The position numbers and the translations under genes are program-made. The notes under the pieces are model-generated. The model was not told where the DNA came from. It did no database searches and saw only the letters and a list, made by a program, of their open reading frames with translations. A stretch of 28,928 nucleotides of DNA from a virus (Duplodnaviria; Caudoviricetes), in the IMG/VR virus record IMGVR_UViG_3300033067_000919, positions 1 through 28,928 of that record. One strand, given 5' to 3'. Of the stretch, positions 1-26,723 are shown piece after piece. Every line of letters starts with the position of its first letter. The first letter of the stretch is position 1.

Positions 1-1152
1 AATATCGGCAATGCGATCGGTGAGGGCGGTCTGGCGGGCCTGAATGCGTATAGCTCGGCGCAGGCGGCGGCGCGGAAGGCGGCAGAGGATGCCCGGAAGG
101 CGGCTATTGAGGAACGGCGTCTTGGGTTTGAGGAACGGCGTCTCGGAAATGAGGATAAGCGGCTGGCCCGTGATCTTCGCAACGACGACCTCACCCACAA
201 AAAACTTGCCTATGAGCTTGGAACCACGAAGTTCATTGCCAATCCTGACGGTAGCGTGACGCTGCGACCGGGTATGGCTGAGGCTGAAAAGGCGCTCGCA
301 GAAGCCAAAGCCCGCGAATCCGGCATCAAGATCGTCCCGGCCGGTGGTGTAGCTATTGGCGGCGATGGCAAGGTTGTGCATGACAATCGTGCCAGCGCGA
401 ACAGCACAATGGATGAAGAGACTGTGAACATGCTGGCGGATCGTATCAGAGCCGGCGACACCACTGCGCTTGTGGGACTTGGGCGCGGTGCGCAGGGAGC
501 GGAGAACATCGCCAAAATCCAAGGCGCTGTCGCACGGCGTACCCGTGAGGGCACTCCGATCAACGAAGAAGCCCGCGCGATGCTGGCAAACCGCGTCAAT
601 CATGAAGGGTTCAAGGCTGCGGAACGGCGTCAGGCAACCATCATGGCTAACCTGTCGGTCTATGGCCGCACGGCATTCGCTGCCACGCAGTTGGCGATCG
701 ATGCATCGGATGCAGTGCCGCGCACTGAGTTCATGCCAGTCAACAAGGTGTTCAATGCCGCCCGAACCAATACGGGCGATCCGAAAATTGTCGCCCTTGG
801 GCAGGCCCTTACCACTCTCACGAACGAGTATGCACGGGCCATCGGGGGCGGTCACGGGACGGTTCATGACAAGCAGATGGCTGAGGAACGGCTGAACGCT
901 GCTCAGTCGCCAGAACAACTCCGCGCGGTCATCAACATGATGCGTGCTGAAATCCTTGCTGAGGAAAAGGCCCTCCCTGAGGCCCGGAAACACATCAAGG
1001 AGATGTACAATCCTGGTTCGAAGAAAGAGGAAATGTCGGTTGGCGATAGGTTTGCTCCCAAGCCTTCTGTGGCAGCCCCGAAAAAAGGCGACCGCAAGCA
1101 GTTCAAGCAGGGTTGGGGCGTTTGGGACGGCAGCAAGTGGGTGCCTGAATAA
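1..1152 (+). CDS. Probable internal virion / DNA-ejection protein, 5'-truncated
   Basis: Frame 1 is open from base 1 (NIGNAIGEGGLAGLNAY...) to TAA at 1150-1152. It is Ala/Gly-rich and helical, ends in GWGVWDGSKW, and is coupled to the next gene by TAATG. Function is inferred from position and composition. Confidence 0.65.
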   Translation, partial: NIGNAIGEGGLAGLNAYSSAQAAARKAAEDARKAAIEERRLGFEERRLGNEDKRLARDLRNDDLTHKKLAYELGTTKFIANPDGSVTLRPGMAEAEKALAEAKARESGIKIVPAGGVAIGGDGKVVHDNRASANSTMDEETVNMLADRIRAGDTTALVGLGRGAQGAENIAKIQGAVARRTREGTPINEEARAMLANRVNHEGFKAAERRQATIMANLSVYGRTAFAATQLAIDASDAVPRTEFMPVNKVFNAARTNTGDPKIVALGQALTTLTNEYARAIGGGHGTVHDKQMAEERLNAAQSPEQLRAVINMMRAEILAEEKALPEARKHIKEMYNPGSKKEEMSVGDRFAPKPSVAAPKKGDRKQFKQGWGVWDGSKWVPE

Positions 1153-4100
1153 TGGCCGAAGAACTTCCAGACGCGCCGTGGGCGACGAATAACGCTGGCA
1201 ACGACGATCTGCCCGACGCTCCGTGGGTGACTGCGCAGAAACCGTCTGCTGGTGGCCTTTCCAATTCGTCGGACGACGGGTTTCTATCGTCTGCGGCCAA
1301 GGGCGCGGCGACGGCTGGCATTAAGGGCATAGCCAATTCGATCGGAACGGTCGGCAATCTAGGGAATTTTGCCGATTATCTGATTGGCCGCGCGCATAGC
1401 GCCATCACGGGCCGTCCGTTTGAGGAAGTCGCAGCCGATCTGGCTGCGCGCAAGGCCGCGTCTGCGCGTGTGACGGACCCGTCTCGTGTCCTGCCGACGG
1501 GTGAGGAAGTAGCCAAGCCAATCCTTGAACGCACTGGCGAATACAAGCCGGAATCGTTGGCTGGGCGTCTTGGAATGGCTGGCGTCGAAGCCGCTGCGGG
1601 AATGATTGGCCCCGGCGGCGGTGCTGTCACCAAGGGAACGTCTGCCGGGCAGGCGCTTATCTCCACACCGACGAAACTTGCTCCGGTCAATGCGTTGGCT
1701 GGTGCTACCGGGCAGGGCGTTACGGAAGCGACTGGGGACCCGCTAATCGGCATGGCAGCCGGCATTGGTGCTCCTGCGGCGGCTAGCGCCGCGCGCCGCG
1801 CCGTGCAGCCCACGGTGGATAAGATGATCGCACCGTTCGCTGAGGATTTGCCGATCGTCGGCAACCGATACGCAGGCACGCGAGAAAATCTCGTGCGGCA
1901 GCAAATCGAGCAATCGGCGAACGATCTCGGCGAATTGCAGCGGCAGTTGATGGTGGATGAGCCCGGCCCACTTAATCAGGAACTTGTGCCGGGGTCGCAG
2001 CCGACAACGGGGCAACTGACGGGTGACAAGGGTGTTCTGTCAGCCGAGCGCGAAAAACTGTTCGACGCAAAAGACCAGCGGTTCCTTGATCGCATGGAAG
2101 CGCAGGAAGGCGCGCGGCGTGCGGCGCTGGAAGGTCAAGGGCCGGGTGGAGACGTGGATCGTCCGTCGGCGTTTTTCCAAAACCAGTTGGAAACCATCCA
2201 GCGGGGAGCCGATGAGGCGGTGGCGCGGATTACGGCTGGTGCCGAACAACTGGCGCAGCGGATCGGGCATGGCGAAAGCCCGGAGAATTTGGGGGCGACG
2301 CTGCGGGCCAGCCTTGAACGGGTGAAGCGTTCCGAAAACGAGGCGCGGCGCAAGCTGTATGACGCGGTGGACCCTGATGGGTCACTGAATCTTGTCTCCG
2401 TGCCAGTGCGGGACGCCGCGGCCAAGATTAAGGGCGGTGTTGATCCGTACGGAACGCCGCTGTCTCAGGTGGAGAATGACATTCTGGCGCGTATGGCGTC
2501 GCTTCCCGATGTCGCGCCGTACAAGTCATTGCAAGCCCTTGATACGTACATCACGGGCGAAATGAAGCGCGAGCGGATGTCGGCGGGTGAATCCATCGCG
2601 TGGGGCCGTCTGAAATTGATGAAGGACGCCACCATGTCGGCCATCAACGACGCGGTGGACAACCAGATTGCATATGAGCGGGCGGCGGTGTCGGCGGGGA
2701 AACTCGCGCCGGAAAACACCACGTCGGCGCGGTTGGAGGCGTTGCATGACGAATACCTCGGAACACTTGGACGGCCGCGAGAAGCTGGCGACGCTGCTGG
2801 AGAAAATGCAGCCGCATCTGCGTCCGGGGTTCCTGACGTTCGCGGAGAAGCGGGCGCGAGAGCAGGCCGATCTGGGCGTCCTGCGGGTGCTGCGGCAGTA
2901 CCGGGACGAGTCACGGCAGATACGCTCCCACTGAACGCACGGCGGGACATTGCGGACGTTCGCAAGCAGTATGGCGATGCGGCGGCAACCCGCCTTGAGG
3001 CTCAACTGGTCGAGCAGGCGCGGAATGCGCCGCAATCGGTCTATTATCCAGGCGGGGAATTGAAGGTCCGTTATGAGGTCGTGGACCTTCCTTCGCTGAA
3101 AACGTCGCACGATACGCAATTCAATCTGCGGAAGGACTATCCGCAGGAATTGCAGCCGCGGGCACGGGAGAGTGCACCTGCGCGTGACCAAGTGAACAAT
3201 ATGGCTGCCCGGTTGCAGCCTGAGCGGCTTGGGCCGTCGCCGGAAGCCAATTCGGGGGCGCCGATCGTCGGCCCGGACGGCATTGTGGAGAGCGGCAACG
3301 GCCGCACGCTGGCAATCGCCAAGGCATACCAGAAGGGCAACACCGCCTATCGCGACTGGCTGGAACGCCAAGGCTATGACACGGCTGGCATGTCGCAGCC
3401 GGTTCTGATCGCGCGGCGCGTGTCCGACATGACGCCGGCACAGCGGGAGTTCTTCACCAATTCGGCAAATGCGTCGTCCACCCTGCGAATGTCGGCGGCG
3501 GAGCAAGCGGCCGGCGACGCCAAGGTGCTGCGTCCCGATATGCTGGCCCAGATTGTTGAGGGGCCAATCCGATCGGTGGAAAATCGTCCGTTCGTTCGTT
3601 CGTTCGTGGAAAAGCTGCCGGCGGCGGAACGCGGTGGCATTCTCGATAAGGACGGCAACCTGTCTCAGGCGGGTGTGAAACGGGTTGAGGCAGCACTTGC
3701 TGCGCGGGCATTCGACGACGCGGCGTTCGTGGCTCGCGCGTTCGATAGTGCGGATTCGAATATCCGGGGTTTGGCCGGTGCCCTGACCGATGCTGCTGGC
3801 CCGTGGGCGCGGATGCGTGAGGCGGCGCGGGACGGGACGATTGATGCATCCCATGACATCACGTCGGAATTGATGAACGTCGTCCACAAGGTCATGAGGG
3901 CGCGCGATGAGGGGCGTCCGGTTGGCGAGGTTCTGCGCCAGAACGATATGTTCGGCTCTGATGTTGCTCCTCTTGTTGAGAGTCTGCTTTTCCGTGATCC
4001 GGAAAAGGGACTATTGGCGGGACGCCAGAAGATCGCGCAGGCGTTGAAGCTGTATGCCGGAGAGGCGGAAAAGAACCTGGCGGGGCCGCGCCTGTTTGAT

Positions 4101-6257
4101 GACGGGGTGCGGCCGCGGGATGTTCTCAAGGCTGCACTGGAAAAGGCCCAGCGGGAAATTGTTGAGGACGCGACGTTTGAGACTGGTGCCGGTGAGCGGG
4201 TCATGTCTGGCCGTCAGCCGAATTTCACGGATGCGGCGCGTGATCGGCTGCGGGCGGCGAAGGATAGCCATATCCGATACACAGAGACGTTCAAAAACAG
4301 GCCGGTTGGACCAGTTCTGAAAGGTCCGTTCAAGGGGCGGTATGACCTGCCGGATAGCGCGGTTCCATCCAAGGCGGTGGTCGCTGGTCCGAAGGGTTAC
4401 GAGACGGCGCGGGCGTTCATCAAGGCCGCAGGCAATGACCCGGTGGCAATCGGCACGATGCTGGATCAGGCATTGGCGCCACTGCGCAAGCCGGGCGCGT
4501 TGCTGCCGAGCGGGGCATTGAAGCCGGCCGCACTGGAAAAATGGAAATCGGATTTTGCGCCCGCGCTGCGGGCATTGGATGAGGTCAATCCGGGGTTCTC
4601 CCGGCAATTCGACAATGCCGCGCGGGCGACTGAGTTGATGGTGGAAGCCGGGGCGATGGCTTTGGCCCAGCGGAAGGCTTTACAACAGAGTGAGGCGGCT
4701 AAGTTCCTGAAATCGGACAAGCCGCAAGATGCTCTGTGGAGTATCTTTACGGCCAAGGATGGCCCGCGTCGGATGCGCGAATTGCTCCGTGGTGCTGATC
4801 CGGACGTGGTGGATGGTCTGCGGCAGATTGGCGTCGATGCCATGTTGCGGAAACTGTCGGCCACGGCTGAATCCGGCACGTCTCAGCAGAAGAAACTGGC
4901 ATCGGCCACGTTCCAGAAATTCATCCGCGACAACGGGCAGACGCTATCAGCCATGTATGAGCCGCGGACGATGAACATGCTGCGGTCAATCGCGACTGAT
5001 TTGGAGCGGACGTCGCGGACCATGGGCGCGACCAGCATTCCGGGGCAGTCGAATACGGCGCGGGACCTTCCAGCCAAGCTGCAAAAACTGGTGGATGCGT
5101 CGAAAGACAAGACGTTGCTTGGCGCGATGGCTGCCGGTGCTGCGGCGGGCTATCTGCACACGGGCAGCGGTCTGGTTGCTGCATTATCCGGAGTGTTTGG
5201 CGGCGCTGCAAAGCATGTGTTTGCTGCATTGCGCGCTCGCGGCATGGACAAGGTTGACGAGATGTTCAAAGACGCCCTGCTTAATCCTGAGCGGGCGCGA
5301 TACTACCTGCAAAAGGCTCCGTTGAAATCCGGCGGTCCCGGTCCATTGGACGCCATCGCGCGGTCGGTGCGCCGTGAATTGATGGTTATGCCTGCGATTG
5401 ATGATCGCGAGGGGCGGCCGGTTATGGCAAAGCGGCGGGCGTCTGGGGGCGCGGTCGTTTCCGATGACCCTTTTGAACGTGCGGCGGCGCGTACTCGGCG
5501 GGCTGTGGTGAATGAAACCCGCGCCGATGAGGCCATGGGCCATAAGATTGTGGGGCATCTGGCGCAGTCATTACTGGATGCCGTTATGGCCCCCGGCGAC
5601 GCGATGAAAGGAAAGTTCAGCACTACCCCAGCCGTGCCGGGCCAATGGTCGGATGAGGACGAGGCGCGTGCGCTGATAAACCAGCGCAACATGGACAATC
5701 GCGCATTTGATTTGGCCGGACTGGTCATGTCTGGCGGTGTCGGGGGCACGGGCGGGGGTGCTGGTGCGGTGGTCGGTTCGGGCCCGGTGCGGCATGGCGC
5801 GATGCCGATTGACGATCTTCCTCGCGTGGCGAGACTACCAAAACAACGCTATGGATCAATCGCACCGGTCAAGTCGGTTGATGAGATTTATAATGCTATA
5901 CGGGACGGGCTAAATTCACACGAAGTCGTTGGGTTGAGGTCTACGGGTGTCCCGCTTGTACCTGGAAAAATAAGAAATTCACGAGAATGGTATGATGGGA
6001 AGCCCACTCGCAATTGGTTAGATGCGGTTTCAACGACTGGTATAAAATCCGAACGTGATATTGAGCGCGCCCTGCGAGCGCATCAGATATTGCCCCAGGA
6101 TTGGTCTTTCAGTTCTCCCGGGACATATCCCGGGAAACATATCAGTGTGTTGGGCAGCAACACGGCGCGGCCTGGCACTGATATGTATGAAATGCTATTG
6201 ACCGATCCGACATTAATAGGCCGATGGTTAAAGCCAACGACTGTTTTCAATCCTTAG
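1152..6257 (+). CDS. Large polyvalent virion-ejected protein (1701 aa) with ddrB-like ParB domain and variable C-terminal domain
   Basis: Long ORF. The segment VRYEVVDLPSLKTSH...YPQELQPRAR...LQPERLG.SPEANSGAPIVGPDGIVESGNGRTLAI (about 3050-3420) matches the ddrB-like ParB family pattern. It lies just before the lysis genes. Confidence 0.8.
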   Translation: MAEELPDAPWATNNAGNDDLPDAPWVTAQKPSAGGLSNSSDDGFLSSAAKGAATAGIKGIANSIGTVGNLGNFADYLIGRAHSAITGRPFEEVAADLAARKAASARVTDPSRVLPTGEEVAKPILERTGEYKPESLAGRLGMAGVEAAAGMIGPGGGAVTKGTSAGQALISTPTKLAPVNALAGATGQGVTEATGDPLIGMAAGIGAPAAASAARRAVQPTVDKMIAPFAEDLPIVGNRYAGTRENLVRQQIEQSANDLGELQRQLMVDEPGPLNQELVPGSQPTTGQLTGDKGVLSAEREKLFDAKDQRFLDRMEAQEGARRAALEGQGPGGDVDRPSAFFQNQLETIQRGADEAVARITAGAEQLAQRIGHGESPENLGATLRASLERVKRSENEARRKLYDAVDPDGSLNLVSVPVRDAAAKIKGGVDPYGTPLSQVENDILARMASLPDVAPYKSLQALDTYITGEMKRERMSAGESIAWGRLKLMKDATMSAINDAVDNQIAYERAAVSAGKLAPENTTSARLEALHDEYLGTLGRPREAGDAAGENAAASASGVPDVRGEAGARAGRSGRPAGAAAVPGRVTADTLPLNARRDIADVRKQYGDAAATRLEAQLVEQARNAPQSVYYPGGELKVRYEVVDLPSLKTSHDTQFNLRKDYPQELQPRARESAPARDQVNNMAARLQPERLGPSPEANSGAPIVGPDGIVESGNGRTLAIAKAYQKGNTAYRDWLERQGYDTAGMSQPVLIARRVSDMTPAQREFFTNSANASSTLRMSAAEQAAGDAKVLRPDMLAQIVEGPIRSVENRPFVRSFVEKLPAAERGGILDKDGNLSQAGVKRVEAALAARAFDDAAFVARAFDSADSNIRGLAGALTDAAGPWARMREAARDGTIDASHDITSELMNVVHKVMRARDEGRPVGEVLRQNDMFGSDVAPLVESLLFRDPEKGLLAGRQKIAQALKLYAGEAEKNLAGPRLFDDGVRPRDVLKAALEKAQREIVEDATFETGAGERVMSGRQPNFTDAARDRLRAAKDSHIRYTETFKNRPVGPVLKGPFKGRYDLPDSAVPSKAVVAGPKGYETARAFIKAAGNDPVAIGTMLDQALAPLRKPGALLPSGALKPAALEKWKSDFAPALRALDEVNPGFSRQFDNAARATELMVEAGAMALAQRKALQQSEAAKFLKSDKPQDALWSIFTAKDGPRRMRELLRGADPDVVDGLRQIGVDAMLRKLSATAESGTSQQKKLASATFQKFIRDNGQTLSAMYEPRTMNMLRSIATDLERTSRTMGATSIPGQSNTARDLPAKLQKLVDASKDKTLLGAMAAGAAAGYLHTGSGLVAALSGVFGGAAKHVFAALRARGMDKVDEMFKDALLNPERARYYLQKAPLKSGGPGPLDAIARSVRRELMVMPAIDDREGRPVMAKRRASGGAVVSDDPFERAAARTRRAVVNETRADEAMGHKIVGHLAQSLLDAVMAPGDAMKGKFSTTPAVPGQWSDEDEARALINQRNMDNRAFDLAGLVMSGGVGGTGGGAGAVVGSGPVRHGAMPIDDLPRVARLPKQRYGSIAPVKSVDEIYNAIRDGLNSHEVVGLRSTGVPLVPGKIRNSREWYDGKPTRNWLDAVSTTGIKSERDIERALRAHQILPQDWSFSSPGTYPGKHISVLGSNTARPGTDMYEMLLTDPTLIGRWLKPTTVFNP

Positions 6258-17452: not shown

Positions 17453-17526
17453 GTAAAATCATATTTGACCTATCGGCGCGATTAGGTCAAGTACATTTTG
17501 ACAAATCGTGCGCGGTGTGAGATATG
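17453..17526. promoter_or_regulatory. Divergent promoter/operator region
   Basis: Two tandem palindromes (GTAAA-N7-TTGAC at 17453-17469, GTCAA-N7-TTGAC at 17486-17502); rightward TTGACA-N17-GATATG; leftward CTTGAC at 17491-17486. Confidence 0.7.
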
Positions 17527-17532
17527 GGCAAC

Positions 17533-17799
17533 ATGGGAAATAAGACAGCCAGCACCCCGCAAGATGGGTTTACTCTTGCATTTCAGGAGTTTGTCCGCCG
17601 AACCGAGCCCTCGCGGGCACGCAAGAACGGTCAACTGGTGGACTTTGCCCGTGAAATATCCCGAGTGACAAAACTGGAAATATCCAAACAGCGCGTGTCT
17701 CATTGGCGCAAGTCTGGAATTCCATTGGAGTTCTGCAAGGCCGTGGCCCAACTGACGGGCGTTCCTCGTGAGAAGCTGCGGCCTGACGTTTTCGATTAA
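17533..17799 (+). CDS. Cro/CI-type (YdaS-like) HTH regulator
   Basis: ISKQRVSHWRKSGIP...C..VAQLTGVPREKLRPDVF is typical of Cro/YdaS-like proteins; start at 17533 or 17524. Confidence 0.8.
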   Translation: MGNKTASTPQDGFTLAFQEFVRRTEPSRARKNGQLVDFAREISRVTKLEISKQRVSHWRKSGIPLEFCKAVAQLTGVPREKLRPDVFD

Positions 17800-19155: not shown

Positions 19156-20061
19156 CTATTCGGCCGCCACCATCATCTCGCGTCGGAACATATCGTCCTG
19201 CCGCTCGGCGGCTTCCAGATAACGGCATGCGTGTTTGAAGTAGGATTCCTTCAATTCGATGCCCATGAATTTCCGATGAAGCTTCAGGCTGGTGACGCCT
19301 TCCGACCCGATGCCCATGAACGGCGACAGAACGACGTCGCCGGGATTGCTCCACATGGTCACAGCGCGCTCGATCAAGTCGAGTTGCAGCGGACAGAGAT
19401 GCTTCTCGTCCGAACCATCCTTCGCCATTCTCACATTGAGAGTATTGGTCTGGTTGATGTCCATCCAAACAGGAGAAGCCCATTGCTGCCATTGGGATAC
19501 GGGGAAGTTCTCAGGGCGTTGCTCAACTGGTTCGGCATTGTCGCCGGGTTTGCGGAATACCAGAACATAGTCTGCCAGTCCCATGCGGGAGCGGGTGCTG
19601 TCCTTCTTGAGTTGCTTGTAGAGCAATCCTAGGGCCTTGGTGCGCGTCATTTCCACAACCGGATCGCGCCAGACACAAATCCGCGAATGGAAAATCCATC
19701 CTTCGGCCTGATGCAGCCGCACGATGTCGCCGGGGAAGTCCTTGAGGCCGATAACGCCATCCTTCCATTTCGATGACGGCAGGTCCGAACAGTGCACCGC
19801 CGTCAGTCGGCCGGGCTTGGTCAGGCGGTACATCTGGCGAATGAGGAATTGATAGTGGTTGTTGAACTCCTCGTCGGTGGCGCAGTTTCCCATGTCCGCT
19901 TCCGAGTCGGAATAAACGAAGATGTTCTGAAAGGGCGGGCTGTAGATCGAAAATCCGATCGTCTCGTCTTTCATCTGCTTGGTGACTGAAACGCAGTCAC
20001 CATTGTATGCAGCGAAATTGTCGCCAAACGCGGAATCCATGCAGTTAATCAGCTTGCCCAT
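19156..20061 (-). CDS. DNA methyltransferase, N4-C/N6-A beta class
   Basis: SPPF (motif IV) precedes HLCPLQLDLIER and VVLSPFMGIGSEG...GIELK (motif I); start MGKLIN at 20061. Confidence 0.9.
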   Translation of the reverse strand: MGKLINCMDSAFGDNFAAYNGDCVSVTKQMKDETIGFSIYSPPFQNIFVYSDSEADMGNCATDEEFNNHYQFLIRQMYRLTKPGRLTAVHCSDLPSSKWKDGVIGLKDFPGDIVRLHQAEGWIFHSRICVWRDPVVEMTRTKALGLLYKQLKKDSTRSRMGLADYVLVFRKPGDNAEPVEQRPENFPVSQWQQWASPVWMDINQTNTLNVRMAKDGSDEKHLCPLQLDLIERAVTMWSNPGDVVLSPFMGIGSEGVTSLKLHRKFMGIELKESYFKHACRYLEAAERQDDMFRREMMVAAE

Positions 20062-21422
20062 GTCGGAACCTTTGCTTTGTGTTTTTCCAGATACGCCGTG
20101 CGGCGTGAGACTTCCTTGCCGTTCGATCGCATCATAGCCGATCGCATGGCCGCTTTCATCGCGATGTGATCCTTCGATTTCCGGTCGATCACGCGCGCTA
20201 TTGCGTCTTCGCCTTCGGCCACGATCAAATGCACTTCCACCTGACGCCGCTGCCCGAAGCGCCAAAAACGACGAACGGCTTGATACCACGCCTCGTATGA
20301 GAATGATCGGCCGACGAAAGCGGTCCTGGCGCAATGTTGCCAGTTGAGGCCATAACCTGTCAGAGATGGCTTGGTCAGAAGCACCCGCACTGTGCCGTCG
20401 GCGAAAGCTCGCAGCGTTTCCTCTTTCTGGTCTGGCGTGTGGCTCCCGCGGATTTCCCTGATGTCGGGCATGAAATCACGGATCGCGTCGGCCTCGTAAT
20501 CCGTATCAACCCAGATAACCCACGGCTCATTTGGGGACGATGAAACAACGTCAGCAACAGCCTTCGCGCGGCTGGTCGCCGTCTTGCGTTTTACATCATG
20601 GATGCCGGTTGCGGACATGTCCACCATACCGAATAAATCAGCCCCCTTTATCGGGGTGGCCTCGGCATGATGCCGAATGATTTTGAGGGGCGGGAGAATA
20701 AACCCCGTATCGTCTCCACCAAGATCGGACGGCATTTCCGCCATGCGCGACCATGACGCGCACCAATCCCAGAAATCCGTGACGGCATGGCGCTTCAATC
20801 GCCACTCCTGCGATGCGGTCGATGTGTCGTTGATAAACCATCGCATCAGCATTTCCGACGATGGCATAATGCCCAGAAAGTCAGATTGCTGGCCTAGCTC
20901 CATGTGATCGTTCGGGGCCGGCGTCGCTGTCGCCGATAGCCGGAAACGGTGATTTGAAAACGCATCGATGAGTGACTGAGAAACCTTGCCATTAAAGGCT
21001 TTTAGGATGCTCGCCTCGTCCAATGCCACCGATCCAAACGCCGCCGGGTCCAGCTTGTCGAGCCGGTCATAATTGCAGATGTTGATTCCTTCTCTGGCCT
21101 CGGATTTGTCGCGAATGACATGGGCCGGATAGCCCCAGCGTTCGCCCTCCTTGGCGATCTGCCAGCCAACGGACAACGGCGCCAGAATGAGGGCCTTCCC
21201 GTTGGTCGCCTGAGCGGCATGGATGGACCATTCCAGTTCGCACGCTGTCTTGCCTAACCCAGTGGAAAGGAAGTTTCCCGCGTTCCCAACGCGCAATGCA
21301 AATTCAACGCAATGACGCTGGAACGGGAACAAATGAGATGCGAGTTGCGGTATGTTCTGGAGGCCGCATTCTTGAGCGCGGAGGGCCTTGCCAGCGAGAA
21401 AGTCGGCGTATTGCTTGTCCAT
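20049..21422 (-). CDS. SNF2-like superfamily 2 helicase/ATPase
   Basis: TGLGKT, LDEASILK, SATATPAPND, GLNWQH, QAVRRFWRFGQ; GAGGGG RBS before MDKQY. Confidence 0.88.
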   Translation of the reverse strand: MDKQYADFLAGKALRAQECGLQNIPQLASHLFPFQRHCVEFALRVGNAGNFLSTGLGKTACELEWSIHAAQATNGKALILAPLSVGWQIAKEGERWGYPAHVIRDKSEAREGINICNYDRLDKLDPAAFGSVALDEASILKAFNGKVSQSLIDAFSNHRFRLSATATPAPNDHMELGQQSDFLGIMPSSEMLMRWFINDTSTASQEWRLKRHAVTDFWDWCASWSRMAEMPSDLGGDDTGFILPPLKIIRHHAEATPIKGADLFGMVDMSATGIHDVKRKTATSRAKAVADVVSSSPNEPWVIWVDTDYEADAIRDFMPDIREIRGSHTPDQKEETLRAFADGTVRVLLTKPSLTGYGLNWQHCARTAFVGRSFSYEAWYQAVRRFWRFGQRRQVEVHLIVAEGEDAIARVIDRKSKDHIAMKAAMRSAMMRSNGKEVSRRTAYLEKHKAKVPTWAS

Positions 21423-21510
21423 TGATCCCCTCAATTAAACAGGCCCGACGGTTCGCGACGCCGGGCCTGCGATGATTCCCTGTGTTGCTCTCCTGAAGCA
21501 CCCAAGGAAG

Positions 21511-21525
21511 TCAGATACGGATCAT
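21511..21525 (-). other. Four-codon minigene (MIRI*) with strong SD in the helicase leader
   Basis: Minus strand AAAGGAGGT-CCTC-ATG ATC CGT ATC TGA. Confidence 0.5.
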
Positions 21526-21589
21526 GAGGACCTCCTTTGGTTGCGCGTTGAAGCCTGTTCAATACAAGCTCGCGTTGGCGAGTGATTGC

Positions 21590-21629
21590 ATCTTGAACGG
21601 CCACGCGGATAAGTCAAGAGAGATTTTAC
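21590..21629 (-). promoter_or_regulatory. Putative promoter of the helicase-MTase module with overlapping palindrome
   Basis: Minus strand CTTGAC-N17-CAAGAT; GTCAA-gagagat-TTTAC at 21613-21629. Confidence 0.55.
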
Positions 21630-21642
21630 GAATATGGAAATG

Positions 21643-21674
21643 AAAAGCCGCCCGCAGGGTTAGGTGCGGGCGGC
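21643..21674 (-). terminator. Intrinsic terminator on the minus strand
   Basis: 10-bp stem GCCGCCCGCA/TGCGGGCGGC followed by TTTT on the minus strand only. Confidence 0.7.
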
Positions 21675-21945
21675 GGTTAGATCGCAGGCCAGATTGGTTA
21701 CTGGTGCTCTTTCGCCCCGAGGATGCTTTCGCATCCGATGCTCATGCTGGCGTGCTACGTCCTGACGAGGGTTGACCTCGCTCCTGCGAAACTCTTGCTT
21801 GCTGATCGGGCGCTACTCCGGCCCCTATAGGAACGCGCCTGTTAGCCGGCGACGCGCTTTCTATACTTCCTTACGGTTCTCTTGAACAAACGATCAACGC
21901 CGAAGCCTCATCGCCGTCCGCTTCCACCGTCGCAGCAAGCCCCTT
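21643..21945 (-). ncRNA. Candidate structured ncRNA (about 300 nt), family not recognised
   Basis: No credible ORF; two multibranch domains; GAAA and UUCG tetraloops and G-U pairs on the minus strand; ends in a terminator. Confidence 0.55.
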
Positions 21946-22022
21946 CTCAATAGCACGAACGGGCGCGCACGGAATACACAACGGGTTGTGTGTCTCGGAT
22001 CGCGCCGTCTATCCCTAGTGCG

Positions 22023-22052
22023 TTGACGGAAAACATTTTATGGGAGTACAAA
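22023..22052 (+). promoter_or_regulatory. Putative sigma70 promoter for the dnaB transcript
   Basis: TTGACG-N18-TACAAA within an AT-rich patch. Confidence 0.45.
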
Positions 22053-22057
22053 CGCAA

Positions 22058-22467
22058 ACCGCCCCGGCGATGCCGAGGCGGGCGTGATCCGATGATGCTT
22101 GGCGGCCTTCGGAGCAAAAACGTGAACGGCCTTTGATATACGGCCACTCACATTTCGGGTCAAGTTTTGATGCCCGATTTTGTTTCCAAAGCCGCCGAAA
22201 TTCATATGATCCCGATGCCTGCAGGCTGTTGGGTAACGCTCGGTGGTCCCGTCCCATAGAAGCTGCCAGTCATCGAACTGCCCTGAGCCGTGGGGAACGC
22301 AGGTTATTGGACTTGCCCGTTGTCGCTTTCGGACGGCTTTTTCCAGAGAAGATGCCGCGTGGGAGTAATCATCCATGCGGTCCCTAGCGGGGGCCCGGTT
22401 AGTATTCGGCGGTCTTTTGGCCGTTCCTCCTGATAGGGGGCAGAGGTGGTTATCTCTGGAAGAAAGC
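22058..22467 (+). ncRNA. Candidate structured RNA or long 5' leader upstream of dnaB
   Basis: Nested long-range stems with G-U pairs mostly favouring the plus strand; no credible ORF. Confidence 0.5.
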
Positions 22468-22496
22468 GGCTACGCGTGTCTGCATTAAGGTCGAAA

Positions 22497-22586
22497 ATGA
22501 AACAAAATAGCCTGTCTGTGTGCGAGTTTGGTCTGATTGCGGTGCTGGTGATCGTGGTGGTTTTCGCGGCGGGGATTTATGTCTGA
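22497..22586 (+). CDS. 29-aa hydrophobic peptide overlapping the dnaB start
   Basis: TAAGG upstream; MKQNSLSVCEFGLIAVLVIVVVFAAGIYV; its stop overlaps the first dnaB codons. Confidence 0.5.
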   Translation: MKQNSLSVCEFGLIAVLVIVVVFAAGIYV

Positions 22587-23997
22587 CAATCATTCCATCG
22601 AGGCCGAACAGGCTCTTCTCGGCGCGGTGCTGATGAGCAACGCGGCATGGTCGGTGGTTGAAAACCTCGTGTCCGCGCGAGATTTTTTCGAGCCGATGCA
22701 CCGGGATTTGTGGGATGTCGTCGGCAAGCTGATCGGGGCTGGGAAGGTCGCCAATCCGGTTACGGTGCAGCCGTTCATCCCAGCCGATGCCATGGTGGGC
22801 TCGATGACGGTGCGGCAGTACGTCGCCCGGCTGGCGGCGGAAGCCACAACCATTGTGAACGCCCCCGATTATGCGCGGGTTGTCCGGGATTTTTCGCACT
22901 TGCGGGACGTGGCCGGGGTCGGAATGGCCCTGTGCGCGCCAGAGGCGGGCGCTGATGCGTCAGAACTGGCCGGGGAGGCGATTGAGCGGCTGGACGAAAT
23001 AGCGTCCCAGCGGGCCTCTAAAACGTCTCGGGCGGTTTACATGGATGAGGCGGTAACGCGGGCTATTGACGCCGCCGCTAACGCATATGCGCGCGACGGG
23101 GCTATGACGGGCATTCCGTTCGGTCTGCGGGACCTGGATGCGAAGACTTCGGGGGCGCAAGCAGGGGACCTGATAATTTTGGCGGCGCGGCCGTCCATGG
23201 GCAAGTCCGCATTGGCGCTGGGCATTGCGCGGAACATGGCGAAGGCCGGATATGCGGGGGATTTTTACAGCCTCGAAATGGGCGACGTGTCTCTGACGCA
23301 TCGGATGATTTCCGACGAGATGTTTGATTCGGTCCCATTGTCTTATTCGAAAATTCGAAGCGGCCGGTTCAATGAAAGAAATTTCACGTCCATCCGTGAT
23401 GCTGGAAAGGTTGTCGCGGGGTATCCGATCCGAGTGGATCAGGAGCCGGGGCTGATGGTGTCCCAGCTTGGAGCTAGGCTCAGGCAATCGAAGCGGCGGC
23501 GGAATATTCAGTTTGCGATTGTTGATTATCTTGGCCTGATGCGCGCGTCGCAGAGATACGCTGGGAGCAAGGTGAACGAGATCGGCGAAATCACTGCCGG
23601 TTTGAAGGGGCTCGCCAAGGATTTGGAAATCCCGCTGATTGTGCTTGCCCAGCTCTCACGTCAGGTTGAAACTCGGGAGGATAAACGCCCGATCATGAGT
23701 GATTTGCGCGACGCTGGTAGCATTGAGCAAGACGCGGACGTGGTGATGTTCGTCTATCGGGAGGCATACTACCTGCAAGGCCGTGAACCGAAGATTGGCA
23801 CGCCAGAGCATGAAAAATGGAGCGACCAGATGCTTCGCGCGGTGAACGAGATGGATCTTATCATCGCGAAGCAGAGGAACGGCCCTACGGGGTATGTGAA
23901 GCTGTACGCTGACATGGCGTGCAATGCCATCCGGGACGAGGGATGGCGGCGTGGGCAGAACCGTGACGCGCAGTATTTGCCAGAATTGGCGTTCTAA
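22579..23997 (+). CDS. dnaB: Replicative DNA helicase DnaB
   Basis: EAEQALLGA, LIILAARPSMGKS, YSLEM, IVDYLGLM, LAQLSRQVETREDKRP.MSDLRDAGSIEQDAD, AKQRNGPTG. Confidence 0.96.
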   Translation: MSDNHSIEAEQALLGAVLMSNAAWSVVENLVSARDFFEPMHRDLWDVVGKLIGAGKVANPVTVQPFIPADAMVGSMTVRQYVARLAAEATTIVNAPDYARVVRDFSHLRDVAGVGMALCAPEAGADASELAGEAIERLDEIASQRASKTSRAVYMDEAVTRAIDAAANAYARDGAMTGIPFGLRDLDAKTSGAQAGDLIILAARPSMGKSALALGIARNMAKAGYAGDFYSLEMGDVSLTHRMISDEMFDSVPLSYSKIRSGRFNERNFTSIRDAGKVVAGYPIRVDQEPGLMVSQLGARLRQSKRRRNIQFAIVDYLGLMRASQRYAGSKVNEIGEITAGLKGLAKDLEIPLIVLAQLSRQVETREDKRPIMSDLRDAGSIEQDADVVMFVYREAYYLQGREPKIGTPEHEKWSDQMLRAVNEMDLIIAKQRNGPTGYVKLYADMACNAIRDEGWRRGQNRDAQYLPELAF

Positions 23998-25613: not shown

Positions 25614-26723
25614 ATGTCAACCAGAATTGACTGGCTTACGCCAGAGCAAGCGGCGCGCTTCGAGGAATGGTCAAAGCAGTGGATTGAGATCGGACTATCG
25701 ACGGCCCCCGCCGACTTCGACACGGCTACGGACGCCGCGCTGCGCGCGTACAAGCTCGCGAACCTTGATCGGCCAATGGTCATCCTTCGCATGTCGTCGC
25801 CGTATGGTGCGACGCTGGGTGGCGCATTGGCTTGGCAGTTGCTGCGCAGCATGGGCGACAAGGCGGTCAAGGATCAGGTCTGGGATCAGGTCGGGGCTCA
25901 GGTCAGGGCTCAGGTCTGGGATCAGGTCGGGGATCAGGTCGGGGCTCAGGTCAGGGCTCAGGTCTGGGATCAGGTCTGGGATCAGGTCGGGGATCAGGTC
26001 GGGGCTCAGGTCTGGGATCAGGTCGGGGATCAGGTCGGGGCTCAGGTCAGGGATCAGCTTCGCAACGCGCCCTATAACTCCATCCAAACACAATTTGACG
26101 CCGGCTTCGCCGCATGGGTCACCTTCTTTCGTGATGTCTGCGCCTGGGCGAATCCGGCGCTCGAAAAATTCTCCGTCTTTGAGGATTTGGTCAAGAATTG
26201 CGGATGGACTTGGTGGCATGAAAACGTGCTGGCGATCTCTGATCGCCCGGCGGTTATCAACCGCGACACCGAAGGCCGACTGCACTGTGAGAATGGACCA
26301 TCGATTTCGTATCGAGATGGCTGGCGATTGCATCATTGGCATGGGACGGCGGTGCCGGCAGAGTGGATTGAGAACCGCGCAAATCTAGACCCAGCAGTGG
26401 TTCTGAAATCGAAGAACGTCGAACAGCGTGCGGCTGGCGCTGCAATCGTCGGCTGGCCGAAGATGGTAACAAAACTCAAACGCAAAGTTATCGACGGTGA
26501 TCCGGATACCGATATGGGCGCGCTGATCGAATTGACATTGCCGGGATTGCGCGAGCCGGGCCGCTTTCTGCAAGCACAATGCCCACGCAATGGAATAATC
26601 GTCGAGGGCGTTCCACGCATCAGTGACATCGACAATCTGCCCATCAACACGGTTATCGCTGCGCAGGCATGGCGCGTTGGCGATCCGCAATCCGAATACG
26701 AGCATCCTCCGGTGAGGACGTGA
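25614..26723 (+). CDS. DUF6745-like protein with internal tetrapeptide repeat
   Basis: LSTAPAD, MSSP, xQVx repeats, [17 protein letters not shown]...[29 protein letters not shown]. Confidence 0.8.
25872..26057 (+). repeat. Coding tandem repeat, 15.5 x 12 bp G(A/C)TCAGGTC(T/G/A)GG
   Basis: Read directly from the sequence; encodes (D/A)QV(W/G/R). Confidence 0.95.

Follow-up and report, generated by a model that had tools for sequence, protein, structure and literature searches.

A Predicted Minus-Strand RNA Cassette with a Constant Frame and Interchangeable Domains Beside the Replication Genes of a Tailed Phage

Introduction

Structured RNAs are normally discovered through covariation among alignable homologs. 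Wholesale domain exchange between near-identical phages hides an RNA from covariation methods, and hence more such RNAs may exist. The locus described here raises this question in a concrete form. It lies at positions 21643–21945, on the minus strand, of a 28,928-nucleotide stretch of phage DNA that was analyzed as a whole and is called the window below. A first-pass annotation, made from the letters of the window, had proposed at this place an independent RNA of about 300 nt, folded in two domains, ended by a terminator and belonging to no recognized family. Does the window encode such an RNA, which of its parts are kept and which exchanged, and what could it do for the phage?

The Locus and Its Gene Neighborhood

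The window is a linear virus record with an estimated completeness of 34%, and it carries tailed-phage genes including those for an endolysin, an ssDNA-annealing protein, a RuvC-like resolvase, methyltransferases, an SNF2-type helicase and DnaB. The element sits in a 1.15-kb gap between a leftward SNF2-methyltransferase gene pair, starting at 21422, and a rightward DnaB operon, starting at 22579; a replication-initiation gene and DnaB adjoin it, and the GC skew goes positive to its right. Among annotated phages the closest match of DnaB is in a Caulobacter phage (40%), and for this reason the host is likely an alphaproteobacterium. In more distant phages (L008, L024, L026, L029, L054, L311, L337, L344) the SNF2-methyltransferase, RuvC and DnaB genes all point in the same direction; hence the SNF2-methyltransferase pair (19156–21422), which is inverted relative to RuvC and DnaB in the window, was turned around in the window lineage, an inversion common to both close relatives.

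Predicted Structure and Ends of the Element

All helices listed in the first-pass annotation were found where it had placed them, with pair probabilities between 0.72 and 1.00 except for a single UUCG-capped stem. Domain 1 is closed by the helix P1, whose strands at 21933–21940 (5′) and 21797–21804 (3′) pair with a probability of 0.90. Inside P1, the TATAG/CTATA stem (21865–21826) reaches 0.72, its 8-bp extension 0.75 and the GGGC/GCCC hairpin (21824–21808) 0.79; the G-U-rich stem capped by UUCG is present and weak (0.34–0.44), with an alternative fold competing for it, and the 128-nt interior (21805–21932) is poorly defined in the predicted fold. P1 is joined to domain 2 by a 16-base island (21789–21804) that consists of the P1 3′ strand and the linker AAGAGUUU. 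Domain 2 (21682–21789) is a multi-hairpin junction with a 7-bp closing helix (21789–21783/21688–21682; 0.98), and its hairpins CGAGG, GGATGC-GAAA and CCAG/CTGG have pair probabilities of 0.97, 1.00 and 0.73, respectively. At the 3′ end, both the fold and a terminator scan place an intrinsic-terminator-like 10-bp hairpin with a U run (21643–21674, minus strand; stem 21674–21647, pair probability 0.98). No ORF of at least 40 aa lies in 21643–21945.

At the 5′ end, an extended −10-like element was recognized by eye on the minus strand at 21946–21954. It is kept in the close relatives L002 and L004, was missed by the sigma-70 scan and has no recognizable −35 element; from its position, the RNA would start near 21944–21940, within a few bases of P1. 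Some 42 bases upstream of this putative start lies a perfect 7+2+7 palindrome (21976–21991), situated between two divergent promoter-like sites, identical in L002 and L004 and found only once in the window when up to 3 mismatches are allowed; it is a candidate operator, or a candidate site for an activator. Beyond the terminator, a further sigma-70-like promoter was seen by eye on the minus strand at 21590–21617 (−35 at 21612–21617, 16-nt spacer, −10-like at 21590–21595); it is identical in L004, falls below the threshold of the sigma-70 scan and would serve the SNF2-methyltransferase operon. With a promoter-like site at one end, a terminator-like hairpin at the other and no conserved ORF between them, the element has the layout of a stand-alone ncRNA gene. 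The L004 terminator retains only 6 bp, and 4 nt separate it from the U run, which suggests read-through there.

Exchange of Domains Between Two Alleles

Two full alleles of the element are known, from three contigs. In L002, which is the same as L003, the element is identical to that of the window and a different cassette stands at window positions 22033–22504. L004 matches the window at 96.1% over 4.2 kb on one side of the element and at 97.0% over 3.7 kb on the other, with zero differences between 22000 and 23500, and in this background 260 nt of the window (21671–21930) are swapped for 249 unrelated bases. One 16-base word survives inside the swapped stretch, namely the P1 3′ strand with the adjoining linker; it is the longest word shared by the two bodies, and none of 2000 shuffles reaches even 14. 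As a control, the swapped neighboring cassette of L002 shares only a 9-base word with the window, which is the chance level.

Three of the four joints of the swap lie no more than 2 bases from predicted helix ends. At the first, the identity of L004 stops at 21931, 2 nt inside the P1 5′ strand, which is itself identical in L004; at the second and third, the surviving island runs from the first base of the P1 3′ strand to the first base of the domain-2 helix; and the fourth falls within the 5′ arm of the terminator-like hairpin. P1 is complete and invariant in both alleles and offers no covariation, the 128-nt interior of domain 1 is replaced by 98 unrelated nt, and in place of domain 2 L004 carries an unrelated three-hairpin junction and an added third domain. 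The ORFs that run over the L004 body (31–79 aa) have no counterpart in the window. An 11-base word common to both alleles is marginal (37 of 2000 shuffles) and is situated in different domains of each. Since covariance models built from the 3′ halves and bodies of the two alleles do not recognize each other beyond the 16-mer, the interiors are either unrelated or beyond alignment. The island itself may be a conserved motif, or ancestral sequence retained between two crossovers; whichever its origin, the exchange left P1 intact.

Fold Strength and Strand

The proposal of a folded RNA implies a structure more stable than those of shuffled sequences, and on this point the window allele is barely above chance: its whole element has a z of −1.52, with 6 of 100 shuffles as stable, and its plus strand a z of −1.36 (7 of 100). 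Domain 2 of the window gives −2.54, compared with −1.74 on the plus strand (60 shuffles each), and domain 1 gives −0.52 (60 shuffles). The minimum free energy fold of the window holds one GNRA/UNCG loop, as do 21 of 150 shuffles. The body of L004 behaves differently, with a z of −3.32 on the minus-equivalent strand versus −0.42 on the opposite strand; its second domain reaches −4.38 and its added third domain −5.63, while its domain 1 (−0.6) is, like that of the window, not above chance. Moreover, the L004 fold contains three GNRA/UNCG loops, all of them GNRA, a number that none of 150 shuffles attains (shuffle mean 0.13); a cruder, energy-free count of tetraloop hairpins is weaker, being matched by 101 of 2000 shuffles. 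GNRA loops and G-U pairs are suited to the minus-strand RNA only. The first-pass argument that tetraloops and wobble pairs agree on the strand, and the two-domain model, are backed by the relative L004 and not by the window.

Because the joints match helix ends and the L004 replacement is strand-specifically folded, the element is, as far as sequence comparison can tell, a real structured-RNA cassette of the minus strand with a fixed frame and exchangeable domains. The coincidence of the L004 joints with predicted helices also supports the idea of a protein-free, structured minus-strand unit with the domain borders that had been drawn beforehand.

Searches for Homologs and Known Families

That the family could not be recognized by eye is borne out by covariance models: Rfam 15 gave no match in the window at E 1 and, at E 10, only five chance matches per allele, none on the RNA body and none at or near a gathering score. 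ARAGORN found neither tRNA nor tmRNA in the 28.9-kb window, which is a fragmentary record, nor was there an Rfam tRNA or tmRNA match, and no reverse transcriptase occurs among the 47 window proteins scanned from this record of 34% estimated completeness. Within the element there is no tandem repeat array of the sort that marks type III antitoxins or CRISPR-like RNAs, and no iterons, only short two- or three-copy repeats, and antisense matches elsewhere do not exceed 12 nt in the window or 11 nt in locus L004. No catalytic-type or ligand-binding core, as expected of a self-cleaving ribozyme or a riboswitch, is common to the alleles, whose bodies share only the 16-mer and the marginal 11-mer. 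Likenesses noted by eye and from recall to the T-loops of T-box and RNase P, to twister and hammerhead ribozymes, to the c-di-GMP riboswitch, to the 16S 5′ end and to the loop-E motif all failed to hold in both alleles. A literature search found no description of the element.

BLAST of the window allele against phages and plasmids returned no match, and that of the L004 allele returned four chance pieces in phages and five terminator-only pieces in plasmids. Pattern scans of viral contigs gave one match for a 22-mer, the L002 contig itself, and few real ones otherwise: 1 of 34 for the GAAA hairpin, 2 of 31 for the 16-mer, 2 of 22 for the hairpin loop, none at all for a 20-mer from the flank of a metatranscriptome contig (X19), and 0 of 120 for a relaxed P1 pattern, in which 15 of the 64 parts of the collection were covered. 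Neither of the two matches in a metagenome scan was real, nor was any of the 85 in a genome scan; the best-looking of these, L382, proved to be a long palindrome between convergent genes (551–803, in a Marmoricola MAG, z −8.1, with five flanking 22-bp repeats) that is unrelated to the element. Among loci collected through the neighboring genes, SNF2 (80 of 181 kept) and DnaB (80 of 598), only L003, L004 and L270 matched, and two matches in L017 were rejected for lying within coding sequence. In 401 genomes from the order of G003 all matches were at most 52 nt long, and the 19 best loci, which were inspected, held no homologs. Single-allele covariance models, run against 72 sources and a selection of 50 out of 102 whole virus records, yielded no further homolog; an extra match of 14.4 bits was discarded since it lies inside a 389-aa ORF. 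No donor of the L004 replacement turned up in any collection searched. The searches relied mostly on exact patterns, with BLAST and models built from a single allele besides, and covered samples of the collections; they do not establish an absence of homologs, and the family may be wider than found.

Traces in Public Sequencing Runs

Twenty public runs contain all or part of the region, and in 16 public runs at least half of its words are present. In four metatranscriptomes, compared at the level of contigs only, domain 1 was present in none and domain 2 in one, at depth 5. That one is a 449-nt contig of X19 (record 9), which carries domain 2 together with the terminator-like hairpin and matches 21648–21817 with two changes and one insertion in the loop of that hairpin, and whose letters outside the matched part differ from the window on both sides. 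In the 30 letters visible per side, no U run follows the hairpin, and the GGGC/GCCC stem has lost one of its four pairs. The contig looks like a third combination of modules, a weak hint given that DNA may be present in such libraries and that chimeric contigs occur. The RNA runs X17 and X18 cover only pieces within 22200–23063, at depth 2–4, and X20 covers flanks; non-coverage of the element is uninformative.

What the Cassette Might Do

The reading toward which we lean, with less than even confidence, is that of a stand-alone RNA of about 300 nt with a fixed frame, whose exchangeable domains are likely binding modules and which would act as a decoy or scaffold for a protein of the host or of a rival phage. 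The fixed frame would comprise the end helix, the 16-base linker and the terminator-like hairpin; leftward transcription would yield a discrete RNA that accumulates; recombination at the short shared joints would swap domains, each folded domain serving as an interchangeable module that decoys or scaffolds a protein; and diversifying selection from the protein partner would leave the interiors unrelated. With no long antisense target, no reverse transcriptase among the scanned proteins, no repeat array and no shared catalytic-type core, the simple explanation left would be binding to a protein partner that varies. From the classes that had been guessed at the outset (decoy, antitoxin, scaffold, ribozyme), a ribozyme and a repeat-type antitoxin are unlikely, because the allele interiors have neither a common core nor a repeat array. 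An unrelated and yet folded cargo of similar length and on the same strand, set in a single genetic background, suggests that selection favors variety. A bolder formulation, which we hold to be doubtful, sees a polymorphic effector cassette in which recombination-swapped domains on a short, unchanging scaffold made of the closing helix, the AAGAGUUU linker and the 3′ hairpin are specificity modules against different host-defense or competitor proteins, or else different switches on the phage helicase-methyltransferase operon. That domains are exchanged at fixed joints points to an RNA selected for variety, similar to what is seen in protein-based phage-host conflict, and since nature provides two alleles in the same genetic background, the function can be tested directly.

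The main competing explanation makes the element a regulator of the adjacent SNF2-helicase/DNA-methyltransferase operon, in the form either of a long leader or of an antisense RNA that works in trans; the strands of the domain-2 closing helix would then have the SNF2 start region as an alternative partner. The 3′ strand of window domain 2 (21681–21690) is perfectly complementary over 10 nt to the 5′ arm (21464–21473) of a hairpin on the minus strand (21440–21473) just before the SNF2 ribosome-binding site, and the corresponding L004 strand repeats that binding site over 10 nt, which makes its helix partner an anti-Shine-Dalgarno sequence; however, 10-nt matches of this kind arise in 249 and 282 of 3000 shuffles, a chance background of 8–12%, and among 161 control pieces of the window 20 and 15 show them as well. 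When a read-through transcript of L004, whose terminator is weak, is folded, the two pairings are balanced (0.49 versus 0.50) and the body-leader duplex is matched by only 7 of 200 shuffles, whereas in the window the alternative pairing has a probability of 0.01 and the corresponding duplex does not stand out (65 of 200). If the window transcript is cut before the 3′ arm of the terminator, 21912–21921 captures the 5′ arm (P 0.85), but such an antiterminator duplex does not exceed what chance gives (391 of 1000). Moreover, the predicted effects in the two alleles are of opposite sign, the operon has a promoter-like site and a leader of its own, and the observation was made post hoc, so that we regard this regulator as possible and rather doubtful. 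It is unlikely, in our estimate, that the locus is merely a recombination-prone intergenic slot collecting structured-RNA and terminator fragments from other genomes, the whole being without selected function. The region is a mosaic, since the neighboring 472-bp cassette is likewise swapped in L002; the fold of the window allele is marginal, and the terminal hairpin resembles generic terminators elsewhere. Against this stand the joints at helix ends, the preservation of P1 as a whole in both alleles, and a replacement of similar length (249 versus 260 nt) and the same orientation, for which the collections searched contain no donor.

Two further explanations seem highly improbable to us. The element could be a distant, short member of a known large-RNA or ribozyme class that the Rfam models miss, since such RNAs typically have multi-way junctions and GNRA loops; yet no Rfam match falls on the body, no catalytic-type core is common to the alleles, there are no tRNAs nearby, and the length is about one third that of GOLLD. 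Alternatively, the segment could act at the DNA level, through origin-associated single-strand hairpins, or on the plus strand as an antiterminator-loading site. DnaB and the replication-initiation gene adjoin it, the GC skew is positive to the right, and the 11-base word of both alleles, read on the plus strand, may resemble a boxA site. This is hard to reconcile with GNRA loops and G-U pairs that function on the minus-strand RNA only and with the lack of an iteron array; the 11-mer, besides being marginal, is sited in different domains per allele, and the change of skew tracks gene orientation.

Comparison with Known Phage Systems

A decoy or scaffold RNA with exchangeable domains would have several partial parallels. 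Phage morons carry protein genes, have a promoter and a terminator of their own and undergo allele exchange between close relatives; the element resembles them in its promoter-like and terminator-like ends and in that exchange, and differs in having no shared ORF and in that the exchange follows RNA domain borders. The c4/CI-type antisense RNAs of phages P1, P7 and P4 are about 80 nt long, with a conserved cloverleaf and antisense words borne in loops. A regulator of the SNF2 operon would be like them, a structured RNA in an operon leader with short complementarity to downstream sites; in contrast, the candidate words of the element are helix strands, allele-specific and each expected by chance in 8–12% of cases, and there is no Rfam match.

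GOLLD and ROOL are large phage-encoded RNAs whose function is unknown and which contain variable regions; GOLLD often exceeds 800 nt, and both are often found near tRNA islands and have alignable conserved cores (PMC12286853). RNA-only multimers (nanocages) are a further trait of this group. The element is like them a phage-encoded, protein-free, multi-hairpin RNA with conserved and variable regions, but it is only about 300 nt long, has no tRNA in the window and no Rfam match, and conserves only a 24-nt frame and the terminal hairpin. The ncRNA arrays of prophage UG27 reverse transcriptases are structurally conserved units beside the reverse transcriptase, diverse in sequence and described as modular (bioRxiv 10.64898/2026.09.22.753630). 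This modularity is the likeness; the element is a single unit whose domain structure differs between alleles, with no reverse transcriptase among the 47 proteins of the 34%-complete record. Its neighbors are the SNF2 helicase and DnaB rather than the reverse transcriptase expected of a retron, DRT or UG27-type system. Fremin et al. (2023; PMC10690425) mined IMG/VR for intergenic structured RNAs of 29–151 nt, requiring at least three matching regions and covariation, and in source and intergenic setting the element resembles theirs. Its motifs are absent from the supplements of that paper that were searched; files 1, 2 and 4, outside this search, could list a piece of it.

Possible Control Units Nearby

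Several further units that look regulatory surround the cassette. To its left, the SNF2 leader (21425–21585, minus strand) contains a strong ribosome-binding site and a 4-codon upstream ORF (21525–21511). A leader hairpin with a CAGGA loop differs between the window and L004 and folds in both, and a terminator-like hairpin stands immediately before the SNF2 start, an attenuator-like arrangement. To its right, the gene-poor 472-bp cassette at 22033–22504 is replaced in L002 by 512 unrelated bases (2261–2772); pieces of it occur in two metatranscriptomes at depth 2, and it is likely the leader of the DnaB operon.

In the same region, a face-to-face pair of promoter-like sites encloses two hairpins, with −35 boxes at both ends 120–140 bp apart. 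The arrangement was seen in four phage records, in or before replication-gene regions (window 22023–22163; L002 2663–2781; L008 3411–3551; L017 8465–8605). Transcription from the two sites would yield a sense leader on one side and, on the other, an antisense RNA of about 80 nt ended by a terminator of its own (22081–22059); the arrangement looks like a counter-transcript control unit. This unit is swapped in L002 and has no Rfam match, and its automatic alignment was too poor for covariation.

Farther away, a cro-like HTH gene (17524–17799) and the left operon point away from each other, and the interval that separates them (17462–17524) contains no CI-like repressor gene. A DUF6745 protein (25614–26723) has an internal tandem peptide repeat of QVWDQVG-like units, and a 1701-aa protein with a ddrB-like ParB domain (1152–6257) is encoded just upstream of the endolysin region.
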